Positions 5,982-62,134 of a stretch of 64,000 bases of DNA are shown in pieces. Below the pieces are notes generated by a model, which saw only the letters and a list, made by a program, of their open reading frames with translations, was not told the DNA's origin and did no database searches. The translations under genes and the position numbers were made by a program. Positions within the stretch are counted from its first letter, which is position 1, and every line of letters begins with the position of its first letter. This DNA is from Bacillota bacterium. Lineage in GTDB: Bacteria; Bacillota; DTU025. Location of the stretch: assembly GCA_050951805.1 (NCBI GenBank), contig JBMNJT010000003.1:32001-96000 (forward strand). Direction: 5' to 3'.

Positions 5982-7589
5982 GATCAAGTCCGAAATGTGC
6001 TGTAAAAACAGTTCTCCTCTACTGGAGCATGTTTGTATAGATAGCTAGTCGGGACTGCCGACGAATTTCATCCAATTCCTCTTCCTTGGTATAGTGGACG
6101 CATTCGACTGGTTTGCACTTTCTATCCAAGTCGAATGAGTATTGTACTCCGGCTCGGCCTCGAGGCAAGTTAGTCCATGACCAAGATATTTATCTCTAGC
6201 TAGGTTCTGCTCGCCTCTCGGCTGGCGCCGGAGTCAGCGATAGCCATCAGCTTGGATTGTAACGAGAAGCGCTAACCCTCAAGCGACATGGAGCGAGGAT
6301 TCTGCCTGCCCCGATTCACAAGCCTGCTTCCATTGCCAATACTCAGCCATGTTGAGATACCTGCGAGCGGTACTCATCCCTTTCGATAAGCGCAGCACCA
6401 AGCAGCCTGATGGCCGAATCATCATTGGGGAATATCCTTATCACCCGTTCCCGCCTTCGGATCTCTTCGTTGAGCCTCTCTACACAGTTGGTTGTTCTCA
6501 GCCTTTTCCGGAGGCATTGGGGTAGAACCATTACAGCCATTGCATCGTCAAATCCTTCTTCAAGCCTGTCGATTGCCTTAGGGGCCCGAGCTGCGAAATC
6601 AGCGATGATGCCCTCTGGCAGTATCCATATCGGGCGCTTCAAACATGAGGCGCAGTCGGGAGTGGAGTTGCCTTGGGGCACGCATCCAGGATGTTCTTAG
6701 TGAAATGAGTCTGGCAACGCTGCCATGATGCCCCCTGAAACTCTACTGCTACAGCATTGACTAGTCCTCCATGGTCATCTGACACCACAAGGTCTACGCC
6801 CGAAAGGCCCCTTGCCTTTAAAGAGTTGAAGAACTCGCGCCATGAGTCTTCCTTCTCGCTGTCTGCAAGCATGAACCCGATAATCTCGCGCATGCCTTCA
6901 GAGTTTACGCCTACGGCAATCAGCGCACTGTGATTCCAGACCCTGCCTCCCTTGCGGATCTTGATCACTATCGCATCAACCAATAAAAACGGATATGGCC
7001 CTTTGTCGAGAGGACGTTCGCGCCATTCGCGCACTGCAGGGTCCAGCGTCTTCACCATGTCTGAGACTGTGGATTCCGAGATGTCCACACCACATAGCTC
7101 GCGGGTTATCTTTCGGATCTTACGAGTAGACACTCCGTTCCAACAAGCGTGGCAATCAGGGCTCGTTCGCTGCGCTGGTACCTCTCAAAAAGGTCCGTAT
7201 CCAGTTTGCCCTCTTTAAACTGAGGGACCTCGAAGGTAATTGAGCCTACCCGCGTCACCAAGGATCGCCTTCTGGACCCATTGCGATACCCGGTCCGCTC
7301 CTCAGTTCTCTGATAAGGCTCTGCCCCAAGCTGCTCCGTAGCCTGCGCTTCAAGCACCTGGTTAAGCACTGATTCAAGAAGGTTTGCTAACCCACGGTCC
7401 CCATCAAAAAGTCCATGCAATTGCTCTTCGGATATGCTAATCTGATATGTAGCCATTGGTTCTCCTCCTAGTAGATAATTGGTTCTTCCATGCTCCAATT
7501 CTACTAGAGAACCAGTGGCCTTTCCATACCCATCCCCACCCACCACAACAGGGCAAAGGCCTTTTTACAGCATTATATCGGACGTGACT
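5982..7589 (-). mobile_element. IS256-family element, degenerate, no target-site duplication
   Basis: Imperfect terminal IRs GATCAAGTCCGAAATGTGCTGTAAAA (5982-6007) and reverse complement AGTCACGTCCGATATAATGCTGTAAAA (7563-7589), resembling IS256 ends; flanks differ. Confidence 0.85.
6343..7456 (-). pseudogene. IS256-family (Mutator-type DDE) transposase split over three frames
   Basis: Motifs YRNGSRRRSLVTRVG, STRKIRKIT, FLLVDAI, VVSDDHGGL, WQRCQTHF, RTTNCVERLNEEIRRRERVIRIFPN; ATG 7456 with GGAGGAG RBS. Confidence 0.92.
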
Positions 7590-8288: not shown

Positions 8289-9311
8289 TTACCATCTGTT
8301 CTTGACTTCCTCCGCAAACCCAAGGAAGTCCTTGAGCTCGATGACGGTGCCATCGTCCAGCACCGCTCTTCCCGTGAACCTGCCAAAGACTTGATGTTGA
8401 TTCGAGCGGAAGAATAACGCGTTGATGTCTGCATTCCGATCGATGATGGGGTAGAAATCCATTTCGAATCGCCGGTCATTGCTCGTGAACTTCCAAGGCT
8501 CAAGATAATCGTTGGGTGGGATGTGAAATGTGATCTGGTCCAGCTTGTGAGCCTTGTTGTTGTAGAATAGCATGTTCTCGGACGCGCAAGATGTGTCTCC
8601 GAATCCATAGCCTATGTTGAAACCGAACGGCGTCCCATCTACAAGCCCCGAGGCTGAGCCCCAGTACCACGTATTCGAGTACGTCCATACTCCCCTTCCC
8701 CAATCCAAGACAGCGAAGGATCTCGCCGGATCGAAGGCCCTCTTTTCGCTGCCGAGCATGAGGATCCCTTCGGCAGGCATGCAATTTATCTTCTGATTAT
8801 AGTAAAAAGCATGAGGGTTGCCGGCAAATGGCGTGGCTATTACCATCGTGTCCATGGGCTTTGGCTGAGTCATGCGAATCGTTCCCTGAAGCGGTTTGCC
8901 ATCGGCGAAGTTGGCGAAGAACACGTTGATCAGCCTTTGGCGACCGTCTTTAATGAACTCAAGGTTAAGATTCTTGTGTTCGAAAGATACATTGCCCTCA
9001 TTGGACGTTGTGGGCATGTTGAGCTTGCCCATGGGAAAACCGGTGATCACAGTCTGCGTGATCTCACCCGGCTCGGTAAGGTCGAGAAAGGTCACAGAAC
9101 CCATGCCTGCATAGCCTAAATCCGCAATTGTGAATGCCGCCCCATACTCCTCCGTCAGGATGCAGTAGTAATCCCATTCCTTGATCTTCAGCTTCGAGGC
9201 TCGTATTCGCTCGCGGTTGTAACGTAGCAAGAGATCCTTCGCCCAACCCCTTTGGATCAAGACCCCATTGGAGTCCAACAAGTCGGAACTTTTCGTAATC
9301 TCTATCTGCAC
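8289..9311 (-). CDS. DUF2804-family protein
   Basis: Motifs KEWDYY, TIADLGY, FYYNQKINCM, LDWGRGVW, WYWGS, GFNIGYGFGD, ASEN, QHQVFGRF; probable GTG start at 9311. Confidence 0.8.
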   Translation of the reverse strand: MQIEITKSSDLLDSNGVLIQRGWAKDLLLRYNRERIRASKLKIKEWDYYCILTEEYGAAFTIADLGYAGMGSVTFLDLTEPGEITQTVITGFPMGKLNMPTTSNEGNVSFEHKNLNLEFIKDGRQRLINVFFANFADGKPLQGTIRMTQPKPMDTMVIATPFAGNPHAFYYNQKINCMPAEGILMLGSEKRAFDPARSFAVLDWGRGVWTYSNTWYWGSASGLVDGTPFGFNIGYGFGDTSCASENMLFYNNKAHKLDQITFHIPPNDYLEPWKFTSNDRRFEMDFYPIIDRNADINALFFRSNQHQVFGRFTGRAVLDDGTVIELKDFLGFAEEVKNRW

Positions 9312-9560
9312 CTCGGCGCCCCCTTTCTGTATCTTGCCACTGCTTTCGACTGGGATGACCCAATTCTTACAGAGGTGGTTCAATTCCCCCCCCCCATTTT
9401 CCCATGAAACCATTCGACATCATTGCCTGCGTTCTCCTGCCTAAGCGAGGTCAAGGCACAGAAATTTATCATGCGTTGTACCGGCCCACGCTCAGCTTGC
9501 ACCATGGGTGGGCTTGCCGGATCCCTACTTTAGCGGCATGTGCGGATGGAAGGACTTCAC

Positions 9561-9589
9561 TTGCTTCCAAGGCTCAACTCGGGTATAGT
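9561..9589 (+). promoter_or_regulatory. Probable sigma70-type promoter of the cobamide locus
   Basis: TTGCTT-17 nt-TATAGT directly upstream of the riboswitch. Confidence 0.55.
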
Positions 9590-9604
9590 TTTTGTTGACA
9601 ACTG

Positions 9605-9779
9605 AATCGACTTCAACCAGGTGCCTATAGAGGGATAATAGGGAATCAGGTGCAAGTCCTGAACGGTCCCGCCACTGTAACCGGTGAGCGCGCGACATGA
9701 GCCACTGTCACGAGATGAGATGGGAAGGCTGTCGCCAACACGCTGTGACCCGGAAGTCAGGAGACCTGCCTGGGTTGGA
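9605..9779 (+). ncRNA. Cobalamin riboswitch 1
   Basis: AATAGGGAATCAGGTGCAAGTCCTG, CCCGCCACTGTAA, GCCACTG..GGGAAGG and B12 box AGTCAGGAGACCTGCC. Confidence 0.93.
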
Positions 9780-9845
9780 AGTACCGTGAGCCTTCGGCGC
9801 AAGGGCGGGTACTGCATGTGACAATCCAGTCATGTAAGTGGTTTT

Positions 9846-9877
9846 AGCCCGGCCTTTATCGAAAGGTCGGGTTTTTT
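9846..9877 (+). terminator. Riboswitch-associated intrinsic terminator
   Basis: CCCGGCCTTT-ATCG-AAAGGTCGGG followed by TTTTTT. Confidence 0.8.
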
Positions 9878-9916
9878 GATACGACCTGGTGGGCACTTGC
9901 GGCATGATGAGGGGAT

Positions 9917-12154
9917 GTGAGGCAGTTGGGCACGAGTGTCAGTGCCAATGCCATTGGATTTGCATACGGTTTAGCCCCGGTCTTTTCCGACGTATCCTTC
10001 CGATTGGATCCGGGGCGCTTTCTGGGAGTAGTCGGCCCCAACGGCGCAGGCAAGACTACGCTGCTCAAATGTTTGGCCGGCCTTTTGAAGCCATCGGTCG
10101 GTGAAATCCTGCTCGGGGGCGGCTGCCTCTCGTGCTTACAGAGGGAAGAGATAGCGAAGATCGTTGCGGTGGTTCCCCAGGATACACGGGTCGGATTCGA
10201 CTTTTCGGTGGAGGAGTTCGTGATGATGGGGCGGATCCCTCACCTCAAGAGGTTCTCGCGGGAAACGCGCAAAGATCGGGAGGCGGTGCGCTGGGCGATT
10301 GAATCGACCGGCATGGCCCCTTTTGCTCAAAGACTTGTCACATCACTGAGCGGTGGAGAGAGGCAGCGTGCCGCCATCGCTCGGGCGCTCGCTCAGGAGC
10401 CTAAAGTCCTCCTTCTAGATGAGCCCACATCCCACCTGGACATAAGGCGACAAGTGGAGATCTTGGACCTGGTCAAGATCATGAGCCTCGAACGCGACAT
10501 TACCGTGGTCGGGGTATTTCATGACCTGAGCCTTGCATCCATGTACTGTGATGAGATTCTGATGATGACAGAAGGCGAAGCCCGCTATTCTGGCACGCCT
10601 GAGGAGGTTTTGACGCAGGAAAACGTGGGGAGTCTGTATGGAGATAGAGTTGTGGTGACTGATCACCCTGTGCACTCTACTCCGCTCGTAGCGCCGCGCT
10701 CCTGTGCCCTGCTGAACAAGGACAACGAGCCTGGCAACGTAACTGGCATCGAGAACAAGCCTTGCGAGGCGGGCGAACTCGGCAAATCAGACCGGCCGGA
10801 CAAGTCTGGACGGCTCACCCTCATTACAGGGGGCGCAAGGAGCGGGAAGAGCTCATTTGCCGAGCGCATGGCTGCTGAGGCTGGGACTAAGGTCATGTAT
10901 GTAGCGACATGCGAGCCCATGGACGAAGAGATGCGTGCTCGGGTGAGCCGGCATCGTGAGCGAAGGCCGAAGTGGTGGATTACGGTGGAGGAGCCTGTTG
11001 ATGTTGCTGCGACAATCGCGAACGAGGCGAGTAACTACGATGCGGTGCTAGTCGATTGCCTCGGCCTTTTTGTCAGCAACCACCTGTTTGCGCAGGACGA
11101 AGAGGCTGATGATCAATCCAAGACAGAGGCCGTGCTGGCCGAGGTTGCAAGATTTGCCGAGGCGGCACGCGATGCCGGTTCCCACGTCATTGTCGTTACC
11201 AACGAGGTTGGGATGGGCGTTGTGCCTGCATATCCCCTCGGGCGTCTCTTCAGGGATGTGCTCGGATGGGCCAACCAAATCGTGGCTGAAGAGGCAGACG
11301 AGGTCTATCTGTGCGTGGCGGGGGAGCCTGTCAGGATAAAACCTCGGGGTGAAGCAGGAGTTGGTGAACGATTGCGGGCAGTCAACCGATCCGAGTCTCC
11401 AAGGCCTCGCCTTGAAAGAATAAGGGACCTCCTCATATACAACATGCCCGATGGGGCGGCGCTTGTCGTGTCGTGTGACTCGGCAGGTGCCATCGGCCCC
11501 AAAGGGCGCGATGTGATTGCAACGTCAGGCTACGTACTGGGCAGGTACATCACTCGCGTTGCTCTCATGGAACTTATCGCATGCGGCGCACAACCTATCC
11601 TGGTGGTGGACGCGCTCTGCGTCGAGCGTGACCCCACAGGCGATGAGATCATAAAGGGCGTGCGGGACGAGGCGGCCCTTGCGGGGCTCGATCCTGAAAT
11701 GGCTGTGACGGGGAGTACCGAAGAGAACATCGCTACCTCTCAGACAGGCATCGGCATCGCTGCCATTGGGATTGCGGAAAGGTCAGAACTGAGGCTGGGA
11801 AGGGCCTCGGTTGGCGATGCCCTCGTCTGCATTGGGGTTGCGAAGGTAGGCAACGAAGTGACTTTGGATGACCCGGAAATCGTGGATCTTGGAGCAGTGA
11901 GGGCTCTGGCCAATATCGAGTGGGTTCACGAGATCGTGCCTGTAGGTTCCCGTGGAATTCGCGCCGAGGCGGAGGACTTGGCCGAAACGAACGGCCTCAG
12001 GTTTCGGGTGAAACCAGGCGCCCATCTCGACTTGGACAAGTCGGCCGGACCTGCAACGTGTGTGGTTGCGGCATGCGATGATGCACATTGGCAGGAGCTA
12101 TCAGCCATGATTGGACAGCCGGTATTCATGGTCGGAGAGGTTGAGGCGCCATGA
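9917..12154 (+). CDS. Triple fusion: BtuD-like ABC ATPase + CobU/CobP adenosylcobinamide kinase/guanylyltransferase + CblS-like alpha-ribazole kinase
   Basis: GPNGAGKTT, LSGGERQR, LLLDEPT (ABC); LITGGARSGKSSFAE, YVAT, VLVDCL, VTNEVGMGVVP, FRDVLGWANQ (CobU); RDLL..VVSCDSAGAIGPK, RVALMEL, TGSTEENI, EIVPVGSRGI, KSAGPATC (CblS). Confidence 0.88.
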   Translation: MRQLGTSVSANAIGFAYGLAPVFSDVSFRLDPGRFLGVVGPNGAGKTTLLKCLAGLLKPSVGEILLGGGCLSCLQREEIAKIVAVVPQDTRVGFDFSVEEFVMMGRIPHLKRFSRETRKDREAVRWAIESTGMAPFAQRLVTSLSGGERQRAAIARALAQEPKVLLLDEPTSHLDIRRQVEILDLVKIMSLERDITVVGVFHDLSLASMYCDEILMMTEGEARYSGTPEEVLTQENVGSLYGDRVVVTDHPVHSTPLVAPRSCALLNKDNEPGNVTGIENKPCEAGELGKSDRPDKSGRLTLITGGARSGKSSFAERMAAEAGTKVMYVATCEPMDEEMRARVSRHRERRPKWWITVEEPVDVAATIANEASNYDAVLVDCLGLFVSNHLFAQDEEADDQSKTEAVLAEVARFAEAARDAGSHVIVVTNEVGMGVVPAYPLGRLFRDVLGWANQIVAEEADEVYLCVAGEPVRIKPRGEAGVGERLRAVNRSESPRPRLERIRDLLIYNMPDGAALVVSCDSAGAIGPKGRDVIATSGYVLGRYITRVALMELIACGAQPILVVDALCVERDPTGDEIIKGVRDEAALAGLDPEMAVTGSTEENIATSQTGIGIAAIGIAERSELRLGRASVGDALVCIGVAKVGNEVTLDDPEIVDLGAVRALANIEWVHEIVPVGSRGIRAEAEDLAETNGLRFRVKPGAHLDLDKSAGPATCVVAACDDAHWQELSAMIGQPVFMVGEVEAP

Positions 12155-12903
12155 AAAGAGTAATTGATAGGTTCGCGATAGCCATGTCGTTTCTGACCGT
12201 CTTGCCTGTTTACAGAGGGGATGCGCCGTGGGAAGACGAGATTGCCCGCTCCGCAGTCTTCTTCCCCTTGATCGGGCTGGTGATAGGTCTCATCGTAGCT
12301 GCGGTTGACGCACTTGCCCTGCATGCATTCAGTCCGCTGTGTGCTGCGGTTATCGGGATGATGGTGCAGTTTTGGGTTACAGGCGGAATGCACGTGGACG
12401 GGCTCATGGACACTGCCGATGGGATGCTGAGCGGGCGCTCAGCTGACAGGATCCTCGCCATCATGCACGACGGCAGCGTGGGGCCGATGGGGGCGACCGT
12501 TGGAGTGTTCATAATCATCCTCAAAGTTGCATTGGCGGCTTCGATGAGCGGCAGAACCCGCACAGCTGCCCTCATGTGCGCACCTGCCATGGGACGGTTG
12601 AGCATGGTTCTGTCCTTTTGCTTGTTCCCTCCCGCCACGCCTGAGCGTGGAATGGGAAGGCAGTTGGCCCGGAAAGTTGGCCCGGGAGAGTTTGCGATTA
12701 CCCTGTCATGCACTGCCGCACTCTGCTTTATGTTAGCCGGGCCCAGATCGCTTTCGGCCGCAGCCTGCTCCTTAGGTGTAGCGCTATTTGCGGGCTGGAG
12801 AGTATCGAGTTCCATCGGGGGAGTGACCGGGGATGTTTACGGGGCCCTATGCGAAATCGCAGAAGTCGTGTCGCTCGCGGCCTTCGCTTTCACGGCCGCA
12901 TAG
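12151..12903 (+). CDS. cobS: Cobamide (5'-phosphate) synthase
   Basis: FLTVLP, TGGMHVDGLMDTADG, IMHDGSVGPMG, GGVTGDVYGA; ATGA overlap with the upstream gene. Confidence 0.93.
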   Translation: MKRVIDRFAIAMSFLTVLPVYRGDAPWEDEIARSAVFFPLIGLVIGLIVAAVDALALHAFSPLCAAVIGMMVQFWVTGGMHVDGLMDTADGMLSGRSADRILAIMHDGSVGPMGATVGVFIIILKVALAASMSGRTRTAALMCAPAMGRLSMVLSFCLFPPATPERGMGRQLARKVGPGEFAITLSCTAALCFMLAGPRSLSAAACSLGVALFAGWRVSSSIGGVTGDVYGALCEIAEVVSLAAFAFTAA

Positions 12904-12930
12904 CTAGAGAATTGGAGTGCTGAGCGCGCT

Positions 12931-13596
12931 ATGGTAAAACGTATCTACCTTGTTCGGCACGGAGAGACTGCTGCAACCTCTGGGCGAAGGTTCGAAGGCT
13001 CGGGCCCAATAAGCGGGCTCGGGACTCCTCTTTCGGAGAAGGGCGCGATCCAGGCTGAGATGGCGGCTGATGCCCTGGCGGGCGAGGACGTTTTTGGGGT
13101 GTATGCGAGCCCTCTCTTGAGAACGGTACAGACCGCAATCCCAATATCCCAGGCCACAGGGGTTGCGATTGAGCTTGAACCGGATCTTGCGGAAGGCTCT
13201 TTCGGGGCCTGGGAAGGGATGACCTTCGATGAGATAGAGCACCGGTATCCTTTGGAAGTAAAGCGGTGGTTTGCAGATCCATTGGGGTACGCGCCCCCCG
13301 GGGGCGAGTCCGTTCGGCAGCTTGCTGCGAGAGTCATCCCTTGCATAGAGCGGATTGCCGGCAAGTTCCAGGGCGAAGAGGGCACGGCAGTAGTTGTGAC
13401 ACATGGGGGCCCCATCAGGGCAGTCCTTTCGTCTTGTTTGTGTGGAAACCTTGAGATGTTCGGGTCGATCCCAGTGGACCCCGGATCCATCAGCACCTTG
13501 CGGTGTGTCGGGCCGGGGGCTGCCGGAATCGAGGTTGAATCGATGAATGTGACATCGTTTTCGGAGAGAGGCAGAGCGGCCCGTTTTAGAGGATAG
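12931..13596 (+). CDS. cobC: Histidine phosphatase, alpha-ribazole-phosphate/cobalamin-phosphate phosphatase
   Basis: LVRHGET, SPLLR, FGAWEG, PPGGES, VTHGG; follows cobS. Confidence 0.82.
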   Translation: MVKRIYLVRHGETAATSGRRFEGSGPISGLGTPLSEKGAIQAEMAADALAGEDVFGVYASPLLRTVQTAIPISQATGVAIELEPDLAEGSFGAWEGMTFDEIEHRYPLEVKRWFADPLGYAPPGGESVRQLAARVIPCIERIAGKFQGEEGTAVVVTHGGPIRAVLSSCLCGNLEMFGSIPVDPGSISTLRCVGPGAAGIEVESMNVTSFSERGRAARFRG

Positions 13597-13617
13597 GCTC
13601 AAGTGCGGGCCAAAACA

Positions 13618-13795
13618 GAATATCGGTGCAAACAGGCGCCCCGCAAGCCGGGGAGAATAGGGAATCAGGTGTGAGACCTGAGCGGCCCCGCCACTGTAAC
13701 CGCGAGCGTGCAGCATGGCCACTGTCGCTGGGAGCGATGGGAAGGCGCTGGATTTGACGCTATGACCGGAAGCCAGGAGACCTGCCTGTTTGCCG
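13618..13795 (+). ncRNA. Cobalamin riboswitch 2
   Basis: AATAGGGAATCAGGTG, CCCGCCACTGTAA, GCCACTG..GGGAAGG, AAGCCAGGAGACCTGCCTG. Confidence 0.93.
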
Positions 13796-13922
13796 CGCCT
13801 GAACCTTCGGCGGAAAGGGGGCGGTGCATGGGCAGGCCGTTTCGTCTGTCATACACATGTGTTGCTGTCCGGCTTTCAAGAGGAGTCCGGACGTCCATAT
13901 TTCTACAGAATGGGGGATTCAC

Positions 13923-14852
13923 ATGTTCAAAAAAGATTGGATCAGATCCCTATCGGCAATCGTGCTGGCTGTGTTATTGACGTTGGTTCCCGGGGCAATA
14001 GGGGCGCACGCCGCCGACATGTACCCATTGTCCATCACCGATGACCTGGGCCGAAAGGTTGAGATAACGAGCAAGCCTCGACGGTTTGTTTCTCTCGCCC
14101 CTAGTTGGACTGAGATCCTTTTTGAGCTCGGCCTTGGCGACCAGGTAGTGGGGGTGACCCAATTCTGCGACTACCCAGCAGAAGCGGCCAAGAAGACCAA
14201 GGTAGGAGGGTTTTCGGACCCGAACATCGAGCTGATCGTCTCGCTTCAGGCTGACGTGGTTTTTGGAACCACGATGCACATGAAAGTGGCACCTGAGTTC
14301 GAAAAGCGCGGAATCAAGTTCGTATGCCAGAATGCTCAGACGGTGCGCGGCGTAATGGACAATATCATGATGGCAGCCAAGATAGCGGGTGTTCCTGATC
14401 GAGCTGACAAGGTGAACGGAAATATCGAAAAGACAATGGCCCAGGTGACAAAAGCGGTGGCCAAGATCCCTGTCAAAGAACGTCTCAGCGTGCTGTATCT
14501 CGTATGGGACGAGCCGGTGATGAGTGTCGGTCCCAACACTCTCATCTCCGACATGATCACATGTGCGGGAGGAGTGAGCATTACTCGCGACGCGTCCTCC
14601 GACTACCCTTCATACAGCCTTGAAACCATAGTGGCCAAGAATCCAGACGTGATACTCGCACCCCACGTGCATAGTGGCGGTGGACTGGATCCTGCGACAC
14701 TGAAATCGAAGGCGGGATGGCAGACGATCGATGCAGTGCGCAAGGGGAATGTATTCCTGGTCGACGATAACCTCGTGTCGAGGCCGGGCCCGCGCGTTGG
14801 CGAAGGCGTTATGGAGTTTGCGAGGGCTCTCTATCCTGAGCTGTTTCGGTAA
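13923..14852 (+). CDS. btuF: Cobalamin/corrinoid-binding ABC substrate-binding protein
   Basis: Signal peptide; RFVSLAPSWTEILFELG, VGVTQFCDYP, SRPGPR; downstream of a B12 riboswitch. Confidence 0.88.
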   Translation: MFKKDWIRSLSAIVLAVLLTLVPGAIGAHAADMYPLSITDDLGRKVEITSKPRRFVSLAPSWTEILFELGLGDQVVGVTQFCDYPAEAAKKTKVGGFSDPNIELIVSLQADVVFGTTMHMKVAPEFEKRGIKFVCQNAQTVRGVMDNIMMAAKIAGVPDRADKVNGNIEKTMAQVTKAVAKIPVKERLSVLYLVWDEPVMSVGPNTLISDMITCAGGVSITRDASSDYPSYSLETIVAKNPDVILAPHVHSGGGLDPATLKSKAGWQTIDAVRKGNVFLVDDNLVSRPGPRVGEGVMEFARALYPELFR

Positions 14853-14908: not shown

Positions 14909-15949
14909 GTGCGGGATAGGTTGGGCAAAGGACTTATGCCGATTCTGATTGTGTCTTTGGTAGTAGTGTCTGTCTTGTCATTGAGAATAGGGGCAGTCGA
15001 GCTTTCCGGGAAGGAGATACTTGCTGTGATATGGGACTGGATTGTCTCGACGGCAACTGGTGACCGAAAAGGAGACTCTACTCCCACCGAAGAGATCGTT
15101 CTTAGGATCCGAATGCCCAGGATCGTCCTGGCGGCGCTTGTGGGAGCATCCCTTGCGCTGTCTGGCACTGTGTATCAGGCGCTCTTTCGGAATCCGATGG
15201 CAGATCCATACGTGATCGGGGCGTCAGCCGGCGCATCCTTAGGGGCGACAATAGCCATGATGCTCCCGATCAGCGTCCAAACGCTCCATCTGGGAGTTGT
15301 TCCGCTATTCGCCTTCATCGGCTCTATAGTCAGCGTTGCTACGGTGTTCAACCTTGCACGAGTGGGCGAGAGGACTCCAATGGTCAACTTGATTCTCGCG
15401 GGCGTTGCTGTTGGATCTATTCTCTCGTCCCTCGTGTCGCTTCTTATGTATCTCATGCCCCAGGACGGCCTTCATGGCTTGATGTTCTGGCTCATGGGGG
15501 GCTTTTCGGGGCGAAACTGGACACACGTTCTCGTGATGCTTCCCCATCTGGTTCTCGGTCTGACAGTGATCATCTACTACTGGAGAGAGCTAAATGCGAT
15601 TCTTTTGGGTGAGGAGGAGGCACTGAGCCTCGGAGTCGACGTCGGCAAAGTCACAAGAAGGCTCATAGCCGCTGCCTCTCTGCTAACCGCTGCTTCAGTG
15701 GCCTCCAGCGGGATCATAGGGTTCGTGGGCTTGGTCGTTCCACACTTGGTGAGAATAGTGATCGGCCCTGACCATAAGAAATTGATTCCAAACGCATGTC
15801 TGCTCGGCGCAGTATTCATGTTGGCTGCAGACACCGTTGCACGATCTATCATTCCTCCGAGGGAGCTGCCGGTGGGAATCGTCACATCGCTTGCGGGGGG
15901 GCCGTTCTTTATCTATTTGTTGAGGAAATACAAGGTGAAGGAGTGGTGA
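14909..15949 (+). CDS. btuC: FecCD/BtuC-family ABC permease
   Basis: IRMPRIV, QALFRNPMADPY, LGEEEALSLG, GIIGFVGLVVPH, ELPVGIVT. Confidence 0.9.
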   Translation: MRDRLGKGLMPILIVSLVVVSVLSLRIGAVELSGKEILAVIWDWIVSTATGDRKGDSTPTEEIVLRIRMPRIVLAALVGASLALSGTVYQALFRNPMADPYVIGASAGASLGATIAMMLPISVQTLHLGVVPLFAFIGSIVSVATVFNLARVGERTPMVNLILAGVAVGSILSSLVSLLMYLMPQDGLHGLMFWLMGGFSGRNWTHVLVMLPHLVLGLTVIIYYWRELNAILLGEEEALSLGVDVGKVTRRLIAAASLLTAASVASSGIIGFVGLVVPHLVRIVIGPDHKKLIPNACLLGAVFMLAADTVARSIIPPRELPVGIVTSLAGGPFFIYLLRKYKVKEW

Positions 15950-15955
15950 TCAGAT

Positions 15956-16798
15956 TTGCCTGCGGCCACAATCATGATTCAGGGCACTACATCCTCTGCG
16001 GGAAAGAGCGTGCTTTGCGCCGGGCTTTGCCGCCTCTTTCATCAGGAGGGCTTCAGAGTTGCTCCTTTCAAATCGCAGAACATGTCCACAGAGTCCGCGA
16101 TTACGGCTGACGGCGGCGAAATCAGCGTTTCCCAGGCTTTTCAGGCGCTTGCTTGTGGAATCCAACCGTCAGCAGACATGAATCCAGTACTGCTCAAACC
16201 CCTCGGCGACATGACCAGCGAGGCAATACTTGCTGGCAAGAGCGTTGGCGTGATCCACGCGGCGGAATACCGGTACAGGCACTTAGGTGCCGCTCTCGGG
16301 TGCATTGAGCGGTCGTACCGTCGACTCGCAGCTGAATACGACATTGTAGTGATAGAGGGCGCCGGGAGCCCCGCCGAGGTCAACCTGAAGGACAGGGATA
16401 TTTGCAACATGAGGATCGCCCGGATGGCCGACGCTCCGGTTTTACTGGTGGCGAATATCGATCCAGGCGGGGCGCTGGCCGCCATCGTGGGCACCCTCGA
16501 GCTGCTCGATGCGGATGAGCGGGACAGAGTAAAGGGGCTTGTGATAAACAAGTTCAGGGGAGACTTCTCCCTTCTTGCGCCAGGGCTCGACTTCCTCGAA
16601 AAGAAGACAGGAAAACCGGTTTTGGGCGTGATTCCCTACATCGATAACCTTGCCATTGCGGAAGAGGACTCGCTTGGCGGAAAAAGAGGAATCTCTTTGG
16701 GGGCTATCTCGACGCTCGATGCGGAATGCGACAGGATTGCGGCGGCTGTGCGGAAAGCCATCGATATCGATGAGCTGTTCGGGATTATGGGGCTGTAG
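15956..16798 (+). CDS. cobQ: Cobyric acid synthase synthetase domain only (no glutamine amidotransferase domain)
   Basis: IMIQGTTSSAGKS, APFKSQNMS, MNPVLLKP, VIEGAGSPAEVN, VINKFRGD, EEDS; only 280 aa. Confidence 0.88.
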   Translation: MPAATIMIQGTTSSAGKSVLCAGLCRLFHQEGFRVAPFKSQNMSTESAITADGGEISVSQAFQALACGIQPSADMNPVLLKPLGDMTSEAILAGKSVGVIHAAEYRYRHLGAALGCIERSYRRLAAEYDIVVIEGAGSPAEVNLKDRDICNMRIARMADAPVLLVANIDPGGALAAIVGTLELLDADERDRVKGLVINKFRGDFSLLAPGLDFLEKKTGKPVLGVIPYIDNLAIAEEDSLGGKRGISLGAISTLDAECDRIAAAVRKAIDIDELFGIMGL

Positions 16799-16799
16799 G

Positions 16800-17765
16800 A
16801 TGAGCACAGGTGTGATGGTCGTAATCGCCTTCCTCGTTGATGCGGCAATGGGGGATCCAATACGTGGTACGCACCCGGTAGTTCTCATGGGCAGGGCGAT
16901 CGAGTTGCTCGAAAAGGTTCTCCGGCCTAGACGCGCCGAGCCCAAGACGGAGAAGATCATGGGAGCGGTTCTTGCCGCTACAATTGTAGCAGGAACCTAT
17001 GCTGTCTCCAGAACGCTGCTCAATGCAGTGCGCGGCTTTTGTCCGCACGCAGGCGATATCCTGGAGATCTGGCTGTTGTCGACCGCCTTGGCGGCTCGAG
17101 GCCTCTATGATAGCGCCATGCAGGTGCGCGCGCCGCTGCTAGACGGCAACCTTCCGGCAACCAGGGAGAACTTGAGCATGATAGTGGGACGCGATACAGA
17201 GAACCTCAGTGAGGAAGAGGCGGTTCGCGCAACCGTGGAGACTGTTGCTGAGAACACGTCTGATGGGGTGATAGCGCCGCTCCTGTTCGGATTGATAGGA
17301 GGCGCGCCGTTGGCATTGGCATATAAGGCAGTCAACACCCTCGACTCGATGGTAGGGTACAAGGATGAACGTTATGCCGATTTCGGGTGGGCGTCTGCAA
17401 AACTGGATGATATTGCAAACTTCATTCCTGCCCGGATTGCCGGCCTCTTCCTGGTGGCTGCGGCCGCAGTGACGGGACATGACTGTAGGGGCGCATGGCG
17501 TGTCATGTTGAGAGACCAAAGAGCGCATCCAAGCCCAAACTCGGGGGTAGGAGAGGCAGCGGTTGCAGGGGCCTTAGGCGTGCAGCTAGGAGGGGTCAAC
17601 ACATATGGAGGACAGGAATCTGTCAGGCCGCATATCGGCGATGCTGTAAAGACCCTTGAGCCTCGCCATATTGAAGAATCTGTCCACTTGATGTACTGGG
17701 CGTCTGCAATGGCGATGGCGGCAGGGGCTGCATTGCGCGCGGTCATCGATGGAATCGGGGTGTGA
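16800..17765 (+). CDS. cbiB: Adenosylcobinamide-phosphate synthase
   Basis: GDP..HPVV, MIVGRDT, ETVAENTSDGVIAPL, YKAVNTLDSMVGY, DDIANFIPAR, HPSPNSG. Confidence 0.93.
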   Translation: MSTGVMVVIAFLVDAAMGDPIRGTHPVVLMGRAIELLEKVLRPRRAEPKTEKIMGAVLAATIVAGTYAVSRTLLNAVRGFCPHAGDILEIWLLSTALAARGLYDSAMQVRAPLLDGNLPATRENLSMIVGRDTENLSEEEAVRATVETVAENTSDGVIAPLLFGLIGGAPLALAYKAVNTLDSMVGYKDERYADFGWASAKLDDIANFIPARIAGLFLVAAAAVTGHDCRGAWRVMLRDQRAHPSPNSGVGEAAVAGALGVQLGGVNTYGGQESVRPHIGDAVKTLEPRHIEESVHLMYWASAMAMAAGAALRAVIDGIGV

Positions 17766-17772
17766 GAGTGTA

Positions 17773-18876
17773 ATGGTGGATTATTGTATCCCGCTTCACG
17801 GCGGGAATGTGCATCGTGCGGCGCGCGCCCGGCGCGTGGATGTGGAAAAGGTGCTGGATTTCAGCGCAAACATCAATCCTCTCGGGCCTTCGCCATTGGC
17901 GACCGAAGCCATAAGGTCCAATCTGCACATGATAAGGCATTATCCGGATCCAGACTGCACTGAGCTGCGAGAGGAGCTTGCTCAGTATCTACAGGCAGAT
18001 GTGGCTTCGGTGATAGTGGGAAACGGCGGGGCAGAGATTATCCAGATGCTCGCGTACGTTCTGAGGCCCCAGAAGGCGTTGATCCTGTCGCCCACATTCT
18101 CCGAGTACGGCAGAGCTGTGGCATGTGCGGGGGGAACGGTTGTGAGGGTTCCGCTTCGAAGAGACGATGGATATTCCATAGACTACGATATGGTCCGCGC
18201 GAACATGGACGGCGTCGACATGGTGTGGGTGTGCAATCCTAACAATCCCACAGGGACTCTTTTACCGAGGAAAGCCATCCTGGAACTGGCAGACATTGTG
18301 GCTCGATGCGGGGCTGCTTTGGTGGTAGATGAGGCTTTCATCGATTTCGTTGCTGATTCGGAAGAATACAGTGTGCGGGACGAAGTTCAAGAAAGAAGGA
18401 ACCTCGTGGTTATCGGGTCTTTGACGAAGTTCTTCGCAATCCCCGGACTTCGAGTCGGCTATGCGATTGCCCCCGAGGACTTGGCAGACAGATTGCGGCG
18501 GCAGGCGCCGCCATGGAACGTGAACTTTCTGGCCCAGGTTGCAGCTGTGGCGTCATTGCAAGATACGGAATACATGGGGTCCACCAGAGAGTTTATTGCG
18601 CGCGAGCGTTCCTGGCTTGTTCGAGAGCTTGAGAAGCTAGGGGCGGAAGTTGGCGTCAAGGTTATCCCTCCGTCCGCAAACTTCATCCTTCTTGACATGA
18701 GTGAATCGGGGCTGAGCTCGGCAAAGTTGTGTCGTAGGTTATCGTGCTCAAACATTCTGGTGCGCGATTGCAGCAATTTCCCATTCCTCAGTGAAAACCA
18801 TGTGCGGATTGCAGTGCGTAGTCGGCCTGAGAATGAAAGGCTCCTTGAGGCGCTCAGAGAGGTCTTCGGTGAATGA
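17773..18876 (+). CDS. cobD: L-threonine-O-3-phosphate decarboxylase (PLP-dependent)
   Basis: HGGN, DFSANINPLG, YPDP, CNPNNPTG, DEAFIDF, SLTKFFAIPGLRVGY, VRDCSNF. Confidence 0.9.
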   Translation: MVDYCIPLHGGNVHRAARARRVDVEKVLDFSANINPLGPSPLATEAIRSNLHMIRHYPDPDCTELREELAQYLQADVASVIVGNGGAEIIQMLAYVLRPQKALILSPTFSEYGRAVACAGGTVVRVPLRRDDGYSIDYDMVRANMDGVDMVWVCNPNNPTGTLLPRKAILELADIVARCGAALVVDEAFIDFVADSEEYSVRDEVQERRNLVVIGSLTKFFAIPGLRVGYAIAPEDLADRLRRQAPPWNVNFLAQVAAVASLQDTEYMGSTREFIARERSWLVRELEKLGAEVGVKVIPPSANFILLDMSESGLSSAKLCRRLSCSNILVRDCSNFPFLSENHVRIAVRSRPENERLLEALREVFGE

Positions 18877-56464: not shown

Positions 56465-56662
56465 AAGGAACGCTGCGGGAGAGCCTCACAGTAAGCATGA
56501 GATGATCGGCTTGCAGGTGAGCGCCGAAGGAGCAAAGGCACTGCACATTGCCGTGGTGGTTGCCCAAAACTTTCAGGCAAAAGGACCGTAGCTGGACGGC
56601 ATCTCTGGAGAGGCGCATACCGCACCGAAGGAGTAAATCTCTCAGGTTTTATGACAGAGACG
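56465..56662 (+). ncRNA. Tandem glycine riboswitch
   Basis: GGGAGAG..CGCCGAAGGAG..AAACTTTCAGGCAAAAGGAC, then CTCTGGAGAG..CACCGAAGGAG..TCTCTCAGG..GACAGAG. Confidence 0.93.
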
Positions 56663-60820: not shown

Positions 60821-62134
60821 ATGACCAAGAAGATGCGGGTAGTCCACTATCTAAACCAGTTTTTCGGACAGATAGGCGGCGAAGACAAAGCAGGAATAGC
60901 TCCCTTCGATAAGCCAGGCCATGTGGGTCCTGGCATGGCGTTGGCCGCTGCCTTTGGGGATGAGGCTGAGATCGTCGGGACAGTTATATGTGGCGACACC
61001 TATTTCGGCGAGAACATGGAAAAGGCGACCGAAGAGGTAGTTGCCCTCATAGAGAAATACAAGCCGGATCTGCTCGTGGCTGGGCCAGCCTTCAATGCGG
61101 GACGATACGGAACCGCTTGCGGCGCTGTGTGCGCGGCGGTGGCGGAGAAGTTCGGAATCCCGGTTGTGACTGGGATGTATCCTGAAAACCCTGGAGTGGA
61201 CATGTTCCGCAAGAATGCTTACATCATCGAGACCGGCGACAGTGCCGCTGGCATGCGCAAGGCTGTGCCGCAAATGGCAAAGCTTGCACTCAAATTGGCA
61301 AAAGGGGAGCCCACGGATCCTGCAACCGATGGCTATCTTTCCCGCGGGATCCGGGAGAACTACTTTGCCGAGAAGCGCGGCTCTGAGCGTGCAGTCGAGA
61401 TGCTGGTGAAGAAGCTCTCAGACAAGGACTTTGTCACGGAGTACCCTATGCCCGAGTTCGATCGTGTGGAACCCAATCCCCCCATTGCTGACATATCAAA
61501 GGCTACAATAGCCTTGGTCACCAGCGGAGGAATCGTTCCAAAGGGCAACCCTGACCACATTGAGTCCTCTTCGGCGTCGAAGTTCGGCAAGTACGATCTT
61601 GAGGGCGTCGAAGCCTTGACGAGTGAGACCCATGAGACTGCGCATGGGGGATACGACCCAGTCTATGCTAATGCAGATCCCAACCGGGTGCTGCCTGTAG
61701 ACGTCATGCGCGATCTGGAGAGGGAAGGGGTCATCGGCAAGCTGCACCGGTATTTCTATACGACTGTGGGCAATGGTACCTCAGTTGCGAACGCGAAGAA
61801 GTACGCGGCGGCCATCGCCAAGGAATTGGTTGAGGCGGGCGTCAATGGCGTCATCCTCACCAGCACCTGAGGGACTTGTACACGTTGCGGTGCAACGATG
61901 GTGAAAGAAATAGAGCGTGCGGGGCTTCCAGTTGTGCATATGTGCACCGTTGTCCCGATTTCTCTTACGGTAGGTGCGAACCGGATCGTACCCACGGTGG
62001 CGATCCCTCACCCACTGGGCAATCCGGCGATGGGCCACGACGAAGAGAAGCAACTGCGCCGCCGTCTGGTGGAGCGTGCGCTCACAGCTATGACGACAGA
62101 GGTGGAAGGGCAGACAGTCTTCGAAGAAAAGTAG
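60821..62134 (+). CDS. grdB: Glycine reductase selenoprotein B (Sec at UGA 61868-61870)
   Basis: VVHYLNQFFGQIGGE, GPAFNAGRYG, HGGYD, ILTST-U-GTCTRCGATMVKEIER; joins ORFs 60821..61870 and 61898..62134. Confidence 0.95.
61883..61897 (+). promoter_or_regulatory. Probable SECIS hairpin of grdB
   Basis: CGTTGC-GGT-GCAACG stem-loop starting 12 nt after the UGA. Confidence 0.6.

Follow-up and report, generated by a model that had tools for sequence, protein, structure and literature searches.

A three-domain reading frame joins an importer-type ATPase to CobU and a CblS-family domain in a corrinoid-salvaging Bacillota bacterium

Can the ATPase of a corrinoid importer carry, on one polypeptide, the enzymes that activate the imported corrinoid and its lower ligand? 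This question is raised by an open reading frame (ORF) in a 64,000-nucleotide stretch of a Bacillota genome (GenBank assembly GCA_050951805.1, contig JBMNJT010000003.1, positions 32,001 to 96,000 of the forward strand). This whole stretch is called the window, and coordinates refer to it unless another contig or locus is named. The ORF, at 9917..12154 (+), is unbroken over 745 codons from GTG 9917. It encodes an ATP-binding cassette (ABC) ATPase, a CobU domain and a CblS-family domain. We consider it probable that this is a genuine, expressed trifunctional gene, in which two flexible linkers attach CobU and a CblS-type alpha-riboside kinase to the ATPase of a BtuFC-type corrinoid importer.

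A three-domain reading frame and its motifs

The uninterrupted 745-residue frame with intact ABC motifs reported in a preliminary description of this DNA was borne out, with a correction of the start. Translation probably begins at TTG 9926, giving a protein of 742 residues, because the relatives called by NCBI (P0387, P0393) open with MGTSIS... and because a genome of the same family (G009) carries a TAG two codons upstream of the position matching TTG 9926. The borders of domains and linkers were placed from a predicted structure of the full-length protein, and the domain coordinates proposed earlier proved right within about 30 nt. Residues are numbered here from GTG 9917.

The ABC ATPase domain (9917..10702 (+), residues 1-262; PF00005) is of the type-II importer kind, in the BtuD/HmuV/FecE/FhuC group. 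Pfam places ABC_tran at residues 24-172 (E 4e-34, 118.5 bits), and all the motifs are present: Walker A (40-47), Q-loop (86-88), signature (144-148), Walker B (165-170), D-loop (172-175) and H-loop (200-203). After linker 1 (10703..10795 (+), residues 263-293) comes the CobU domain (10796..11350 (+), residues 294-478), which corresponds to adenosylcobinamide kinase/adenosylcobinamide-phosphate guanylyltransferase. The Pfam CobU profile (PF02283) is covered in full at residues 301-474 (profile 1-168/168, E 1e-62, 210.9 bits against a cut-off of 27), and the equivalog model PRK05800 scores 204.2 bits, above its cut-off of 161. The P-loop GGARSGKS (305-312) and the histidine of HRERRP (346-351) are kept. 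Neither varies among the 61 sequences in our CobU alignment (A3), and both align with Protein Data Bank (PDB) entry 9vio. The domain retains 15/15 invariant columns of alignment A3. The match to the CobU structures 9vio, 7tm8 and 1c9k (E 1e-33 to 1e-36) extends over their full length, and the P-loop and the catalytic histidine motif are shared with them, including the Salmonella enterica enzyme (1cbu/1c9k). Known CobU enzymes are free-standing proteins of about 180 residues, whereas the CobU of the fusion sits between two other domains. The guanylylation site of CobU is His-46, according to the reference list of PMC8749415.

Linker 2 (11351..11401 (+), residues 479-495) covers the region of the former cobU stop and cblS start. 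It leads into the CblS-family (alpha-ribazole kinase) domain (11402..12151 (+), residues 496-745), which has a PurM-superfamily fold. Pfam recognizes the AIRS N-terminal domain at residues 507-619 (30.1 bits against a cut-off of 24). With residues 490-745 as query, no NCBIfam model was matched at E 1e-5 and no PDB sequence relative was found below E 0.1. The domain has 505 database protein matches at E <=0.001. The best 120 of these are stand-alone proteins of 230-330 residues, 41-61% identical over 83-99% of the domain, named 'alpha-ribazole kinase' (three), 'AIR synthase related protein' or 'selenophosphate synthetase-related protein'. The nearest ESM Atlas clusters carry the name alpha-ribazole kinase / CblS. 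An AlphaFold2 model of the domain (64 sequences) reached a predicted local distance difference test score (pLDDT) of 96.3, and Foldseek matched this model to SelD (3u0o, E 6e-16), then to ThiL, HypE and PurM, down to E 1e-13. All 14/14 invariant columns of the family alignment (A1) are kept.

The genomic surroundings of stand-alone relatives point the same way. In the three loci inspected (G022, G024, G021), the cblS-like gene adjoins a gene for an energy-coupling factor (ECF) S-component (PF12822) in 3/3 cases, and a cobalamin riboswitch precedes 2/3 of them. The fused domain is 42-48% identical to the stand-alone proteins beside these S-component genes. We accept the domain as a member of the CblS family, for which alpha-ribazole kinase would be the expected activity. 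The lack of an NCBIfam model or PDB relative, the mixed family names and the absence of a clear cblT gene from the genome would also suit a PurM-superfamily kinase for some other substrate, such as another alpha-riboside or a corrinoid intermediate. We judge this unlikely in view of the identity to proteins in the classical cblTS arrangement behind cobalamin riboswitches and of the names of the Atlas clusters. In addition, the genome is without CobT, so that its CobS needs some route to alpha-ribazole-phosphate.

The full-length structure model (89 sequences) has three confident domains, with a pLDDT above 90 for the ABC part. The predicted template modelling score is 0.49 and both linkers (263-293 and 479-495) have a pLDDT below 50; packing between the domains is not predicted. 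The model thus depicts the fusion as three domains on flexible linkers, in a product predicted at about 82 kDa.

Conservation, origin and distribution of the fused frame

Nine metagenome loci at >=87% identity were compared with the window. The whole frame is present in five, four at 99-100% identity (L051, L052, L053, L055) and one at 87% (L054). In two others (L057, L058) contig ends cut the fusion and the frame is open over the part covered, and in the last two it is broken (L056 and L059, the latter with four breaks in 1.4 kb). A 23.7-kb contig from run X10 reproduces window positions 9550-12950 with 0 differences, though it may come from the same source. Relatives at 86-88% identity form a 90% cluster around P0003 with 36 members, and 9 of the 15 listed are 742-745 residues long. 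Full-length members come from NCBI (MFA7635720.1, MGI6518795.1), IMG, ENA and Logan, one of them being found on 35 contigs. A genome of another genus in the same family (G004) encodes a 748-residue three-domain ORF at 62-66% identity, the domains themselves being at 64-68%. The preliminary description had proposed looking at the junctions in relatives: the frame is open in these 5/9 near-identical loci and in G004, and G009, of the same family, does carry a stop at the CobU-CblS junction.

Three JGI contigs from relatives at about 88% identity (P0004, P0401, P0402) encode a form shortened to 470-473 residues by single-base frameshifts. The site of the frameshift differs between P0004 and P0401/P0402, and all three run to one shared stop in an alternative frame (...SLSE). 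One of these contigs (135,786 bp) has the CblS part annotated as a protein of its own, 236 residues long. P0390, a protein from a metagenome-assembled genome of the same sublineage, reads through. We read the truncated forms as sequencing errors or strain-level lesions. A further relative at about 88% (P0396) was noted alongside them. The 87% lineage has an in-frame ATG at the ...VRMK position, so that a frameshift there would restore an ATGA-type cobU/cblS junction.

That the ORF results from mis-assembly, or is a decaying gene read through by chance, is highly improbable. The frame breaks in L056, L059, P0004, P0401 and P0402 are what such an explanation can call upon. They lie at differing places between assemblies, P0390 reads through, and most assemblies as well as two further lineages are intact. 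With the intact frame in 5/9 loci and in further lineages, an assembly artefact was rejected. Substitution patterns argue against decay too. Between the window and L054, the ratio of non-synonymous to synonymous substitution rates (dN/dS) is 0.09 for the ABC domain, 0.17 for CobU and 0.19 for CblS, and every invariant residue is kept. For linkers 1 and 2 the ratio is 1.6 and 0.67. Linker 1 has only 45% amino acid identity to the 87% lineage and is about 22 residues shorter in G004. The low ratios in the domains and the high ratios in the linkers show that the domains are constrained while fused and that the linkers need only stay open.

Parts of the ORF are also present in contigs of RNA libraries. 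Contigs from three runs of two studies span the ABC-CobU linker (10648-11160, 10714-10955 and 10741-10990), and one spans the stop of the fusion into cobS (12061-12476). The stretch 11353-11567 is uncovered, leaving the CobU-CblS junction unbridged, and this uncovered stretch proves nothing.

In G009, the ABC-CobU protein ends ...VRIK-TGA, and cblS is a gene of its own whose ATG overlaps this TGA. The same split pair occurs on an independent contig of 10,779 bp (P0403 + P0406). The window and G004 lack this cobU stop, and CobU and CblS are connected there by 15-22 unconserved residues. From this comparison, the CobU-CblS link would have arisen when the stop at an ATGA overlap was lost. The three-way form was found only in the genome studied here (G000), in its 86-88% relatives and in G004.

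The two-way ABC-CobU form is more frequent. Of the 120 listed homologue clusters, 23 contain ABC and CobU without the AIRS domain; P0004 is a truncated three-way form. These proteins (e.g. P0005-P0013, P0017-P0028, P0041; G039) have the same importer-type ATPase and a full CobU joined by a variable linker, and they lack the CblS domain. They are named for CobU only by NCBI and as ABC ATPase/CobU by IMG. In the complete genome G039, the two-way fusion occupies the btuD position in the order riboswitch-btuF-btuC-[ABC-CobU]-cobS-cobQ-HAD-cobT, and the lower ligand is activated via CobT.

At the level of genomes, CobU is found in 208/401 sampled members of the phylum, and 3/21 genomes of the order hold cobU/cblS. 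The real long CobU ORFs among the 150 listed matches are those of G000 and G004 (three-way), G039 (two-way) and G332. The last is a CobU-CbiD fusion of 592 residues (L108 2758-4536 (+); PF02283 at 44-226, PF01888 at 236-489). Like the ORF studied here it joins CobU to a B12-pathway protein, though its partner is not a transporter subunit. Long frames around cobU in G186, G146 and G179 were rejected as read-through artefacts, the genes being of about 185 residues. Frames of 340 and 334 residues around cobU in G290 and G378 were seen by tblastn only. L023 and L027 were rejected as fusions, since their ABC and CobU matches lie 1.9 kb apart.

CobU and CblS were together in one protein in 0 of the 150 best among 1.84 billion representatives, where fused members may hide behind shorter representatives. 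The fusion's own 50% cluster is apparently represented by the shorter P0006. A search for longer homologues of the CblS domain returned only P0002 and P0003, to be taken as a weak indication, and missed the 748-residue protein of G004. A scan of genome contigs with the whole protein gave no close relative, the best match being at 43%. The nearest named look-alikes of the whole protein in the ESM Atlas are two clusters of 'modular' ABC ATPases of about 440 residues (PF00005 + PF03266), found most often in Chloroflexota (58 members) and Pseudomonadota (57 members). These may be further fusions of ABC-CobU type outside the Bacillota.

A tree of CobU domains was built from 94 rows (24 fused, 70 stand-alone), leaving out near-identical cluster members, P0004, P0007, P0022, P0025 and stand-alone proteins above 300 residues. 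Fused proteins fall into about six groups, and a single origin is consistent with the well-supported branches. Overall, the fusions are sporadic and at the tips of the tree. Inside its local clade, G004 is placed together with the split P0005/P0006 (Shimodaira-Hasegawa-like approximate likelihood ratio test, 89), which means that cblS was either fused twice or split off once.

The gene cluster and corrinoid salvage in the genome

The fusion opens a cluster of cobamide genes, all on the (+) strand. A cobalamin riboswitch aptamer lies upstream of it at 9602..9787 (RF00174, 112.5 bits against a gathering threshold of 31.5, model 1-189/189). A terminator-like hairpin (9846-9873; 12-pair stem with 6 GC pairs) followed by a T-run, TTTTGA, extends over 9846..9879 and is likely the expression platform of this riboswitch. 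Downstream, cobS (cobamide synthase; 12151..12903, TIGR00317, 135.5 bits against a cut-off of 110) begins with an ATG that shares bases with the fusion's TGA (12152-12154), giving ATGA. The fusion gene is translationally coupled to cobS, as the preliminary description had stated.

A cobC-type alpha-ribazole/cobamide phosphate phosphatase gene follows at 12931..13596 (TIGR03162, 144.7 bits, below the cut-off of 162.9); G004 has a His_Phos_1 protein at this place. A second cobalamin riboswitch (13617..13803; RF00174, 115.5 bits, no terminator) stands upstream of btuF. At 73% identity between the two riboswitches, a recent copying of the first was rejected. Next come btuF, for a substrate-binding protein (13824..14852; NCBIfam BtuF and TroA-like models), and btuC, for a FecCD permease (14909..15949; PRK09535 BtuC 309 bits, below the cut-off of 461; PF01032 334 bits). 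The cluster ends with a CobQ N-terminal half (15956..16798), cbiB (adenosylcobinamide-phosphate synthase; 16800..17765, TIGR00380, 260.7 bits against 165.9) and cobD (threonine-phosphate decarboxylase; 17749..18876, TIGR01140, 337.9 bits against 290.55). The cbiB ORF is listed from 16650; its domain begins at ORF residue 54 and the likely start is ATG 16800.

The order fusion-cobS-cobC-btuF-btuC-cobQN-cbiB-cobD is common to the window and G004, the latter having a single riboswitch versus two in the window. In both clusters, and at the G039 locus, the fusion is the only ATPase gene and accompanies genes for a FecCD permease and a cluster-A binding protein. The claim that btuF-btuC have no other ATPase gene thus stands for the cluster. 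It fails for the genome, where a second riboswitch-controlled locus lies on another contig, C8 213434-217445 (L105 2434-6445), with btuF, btuC, an ordinary ATPase and the CobA/BtuR adenosyltransferase. The organism has, therefore, two importers for corrinoids, and their ATPases differ, being plain in one and fused in the other.

The genome is 97% complete. We found in it no second CobU, no CobT-family (DBI_PRT) protein, and neither CbiC nor CbiZ, which makes the fusion central to its corrinoid-salvage module. Four B12-binding-domain proteins score above cut-off. The organism is a corrinoid-salvaging, non-producing bacterium from anaerobic digesters, and its gene content fits the 'Cbi salvager' category as given in the accessible part of PMC6461909.

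Some further features of the region were recorded. The CobQ/CbiP gene comprises the synthetase half (cobQ profile 2-237/480; Pfam CbiA/AAA_26 only) without GATase_3. Proteins of this form, 280-289 residues long, are found at the same place in two genera (window 15956-16798 (+); L103 6855-7724 (-)). The search for GATase_3 (PF07685) elsewhere in the genome gave one partial match (29.6 bits, profile 31-90/196, in a 244-residue frame) and no full-length cobQ. The truncated CobQ may perform a glutaminase-less, ammonia-using amidase step on salvaged corrinoids; digesters are rich in ammonia. Just upstream of the cluster are a Mutator-family transposase fragment (6639-7133 (-); profile 116-268/379) and a DUF2804 gene (8289-9413 (-)). 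The two other genomes of the genus, G001 (97% complete) and G002 (72% complete), have no cobU/cblS matches. Together, these neighbours and absences give a hint of patchy inheritance or horizontal acquisition of the salvage cluster. Elsewhere in the window, a tandem glycine riboswitch (56466-56662 (+)) and a bacterial selenocysteine insertion sequence (SECIS) element (Rfam SECIS_4, 61871-61908 (+)) suggest a nearby selenoprotein locus, perhaps of glycine-reductase type, unrelated to the fusion.

Possible role of the fusion

The cluster suggests how the protein could work. When cobamide is scarce, the riboswitch would permit the operon to be read. BtuF, BtuC and the ABC domain, as the usual dimer, would import incomplete corrinoids, which CobA/BtuR from the second btu locus would adenosylate. 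The CobU domain would make adenosylcobinamide-GDP, and the CblS domain would convert a salvaged alpha-riboside into alpha-ribazole-phosphate. CobS, whose translation is coupled to that of the fusion, would join these two products, and the CobC-type phosphatase would complete the cofactor. The gene itself was probably assembled stepwise from adjacent overlapping genes, ABC-CobU, a form that many lineages have, coming first and cblS being added later through stop loss. It is certain that the fusion has the three activities produced together in equimolar amounts and sets them at the membrane face of CobS and CbiB. A kinetic advantage through channelling, or an import-coupled complex, is plausible because it would fit a published proposal: in the available part of PMC8749415 (mBio 2022), CobS is proposed to anchor a membrane multienzyme complex with CbiB, CobC and CobU.

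Comparison with known systems brings out what is usual and what is not. E. coli BtuD is a stand-alone protein of about 250 residues. Like E. coli BtuCD-F, the fusion locus has a motif-complete ABC ATPase, a FecCD permease and a Peripla_BP_2 binding protein, and a cobalamin riboswitch. In contrast to BtuD, the fusion carries 480 further residues that make up two enzymes, and its ABC domain scores below the corrinoid-ATPase cut-off. Alpha-ribazole salvage by CblS/CblT was reportedly described in Listeria innocua and Geobacillus by Gray and Escalante-Semerena in 2010 and by Mattes and Escalante-Semerena in 2017, as cited in PMC6461909 and PMC6167548. At the level of the family, to which this comparison is confined, those CblS proteins are likewise PurM-like kinases of about 250 residues typical of Bacillota that lack CobT, whereas here CblS is fused and not paired with cblT. 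The accessible part of PMC6461909 reports CblS from 363 species out of about 11,000, the majority being Firmicutes. The complex of PMC8749415 involves the same enzymes, CobU, CobS, CobC and CbiB. As far as that paper was available, recruitment by CobS is non-covalent, the organisms are E. coli and Salmonella, and the importer, CblS and fusions are unmentioned, whereas the protein studied here would bring CobU along with a membrane transporter.

Several observations weigh against reading the ORF as the trifunctional ATPase of this importer. At its N-terminus the best NCBIfam models, for a corrinoid ABC ATPase (PRK09536, 285.3 bits against a cut-off of 537) and for a haem ATPase (PRK13548, 246.3 against 261), both fall below the equivalog cut-offs, so that the corrinoid assignment rests on gene context. 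The second, complete btuFCD locus means that the partner permease is likewise deduced from gene adjacency. Inside the fusion ORF, a TTG lies in frame at residue 486 and has AGGAG 9 nt before it, so that a separate CblS could still be made; this Shine-Dalgarno sequence is not conserved in the 87% lineage. The RNA-library contigs attest presence in RNA libraries, not one full-length message. A riboswitch-linked cblT-like transporter was not found in this genome. The best cblT-like ECF S-component (contig C5 35361-35822 (-); L145 4799-5449) is 28-34% identical to cblT-like proteins, has no riboswitch before it and adjoins a 594-residue ORF matching an ABC ATPase by sequence. No convincing cblT for the entry of the alpha-riboside or its base was found. 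Finally, ABC ATPases function as dimers and the PDB entries for CobU contain three chains or multiples (3 or 6), so that the fusion would impose a 2:3 symmetry mismatch.

Granting a genuine gene, the tether may be neutral or adaptive. By a neutral account, chance loss of a stop at an operon junction fused the genes and the tether is tolerated without benefit. We regard this as a real possibility, somewhat short of even. The ATGA overlap of the split relative needs a 1-nt change to fuse, and within the 88% lineage some assemblies (P0004, P0401, P0402) regain a stop through single-base frameshifts. The distribution is sporadic and restricted to tree tips, the linkers are floppy and fast-evolving, and another accidental or lineage-specific fusion of B12 genes exists in G332. 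Yet the frame has stayed open across at least 34% amino acid divergence and two genera, although stops would arise easily in 48 unconstrained linker codons if the link did not matter, and the ABC-CobU form is numerous in databases. By an adaptive account, the tether docks CobU and CblS on a BtuC2(ABC)2-CobS-CbiB-CobC membrane assembly in which imported corrinoid and alpha-ribazole-phosphate pass directly to CobS. Its attraction lies in the recurrence of ABC-CobU fusions, in 23/120 listed clusters and about six groups of the CobU tree, and in the position of the fusion, next to btuC and cobS wherever the context is readable (G000, G004, G039). The constraint on all three domains while fused, and the agreement with the CobS-anchored complex as outlined in the available part of PMC8749415, speak for it too. 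We nevertheless find such an import-coupled metabolon doubtful. Fused and split CobU-CblS alternate within one family, and the two-way fusion is not kept in the family of G039, where cobU frames in G126, G311 and G336 are of 203-260 residues. Only 4 real long CobU ORFs occur among 150 listed matches from 401 genomes, the supported branches of the tree are compatible with a single origin, the linkers are unconstrained with no predicted packing between domains, and no substrate passes between CobU and CblS.

The import-coupled complex advanced in the preliminary description accordingly keeps its foundations, namely the fusion, its intact domains and the coupling to cobS. Channelling is weakened by the lack of predicted packing and by the evolutionarily labile CobU-CblS link, which is split in G009, within the same family, and again in an independent assembly. 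That the fusion is a 'Rosetta stone' of a salvage metabolon, uniting import, activation of corrinoid and lower ligand, and condensation in one assembly, is a speculation that we think rather unlikely to be right. If true, the twofold ABC dimer, being joined to the threefold trimer of CobU, could link several transporters together as a cluster.

The preferred reading remains a genuine trifunctional gene, and its novelty has to be stated with care. No description of a two-way or three-way fusion was found in full-text literature searches, nor in the accessible parts of PMC6461909, PMC8123684, PMC6167548 and PMC8749415. In this sense the earlier statement that the three-way fusion is undescribed holds for papers. 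It does not hold for databases: NCBI and IMG already contain the three-way protein, named after CobU ('bifunctional adenosylcobinamide kinase...'), and the ABC-CobU half, already numerous there, is not new. Novelty is lowered to that extent. The fusion is real, coherent and experimentally useful, with three known parts and a narrow distribution.

Late B12 assembly is carried out partly by the integral membrane enzymes CobS and CbiB. The membrane multienzyme complex is, in PMC8749415, proposed and not demonstrated. A CobU domain, with CblS, bolted to a transporter ATPase offers a direct experimental handle on this question. The label 'bifunctional CobU' hides an importer subunit and the genome's only lower-ligand activation enzyme, and such annotation would mislead genome-based predictions of corrinoid salvage in digester and gut communities.

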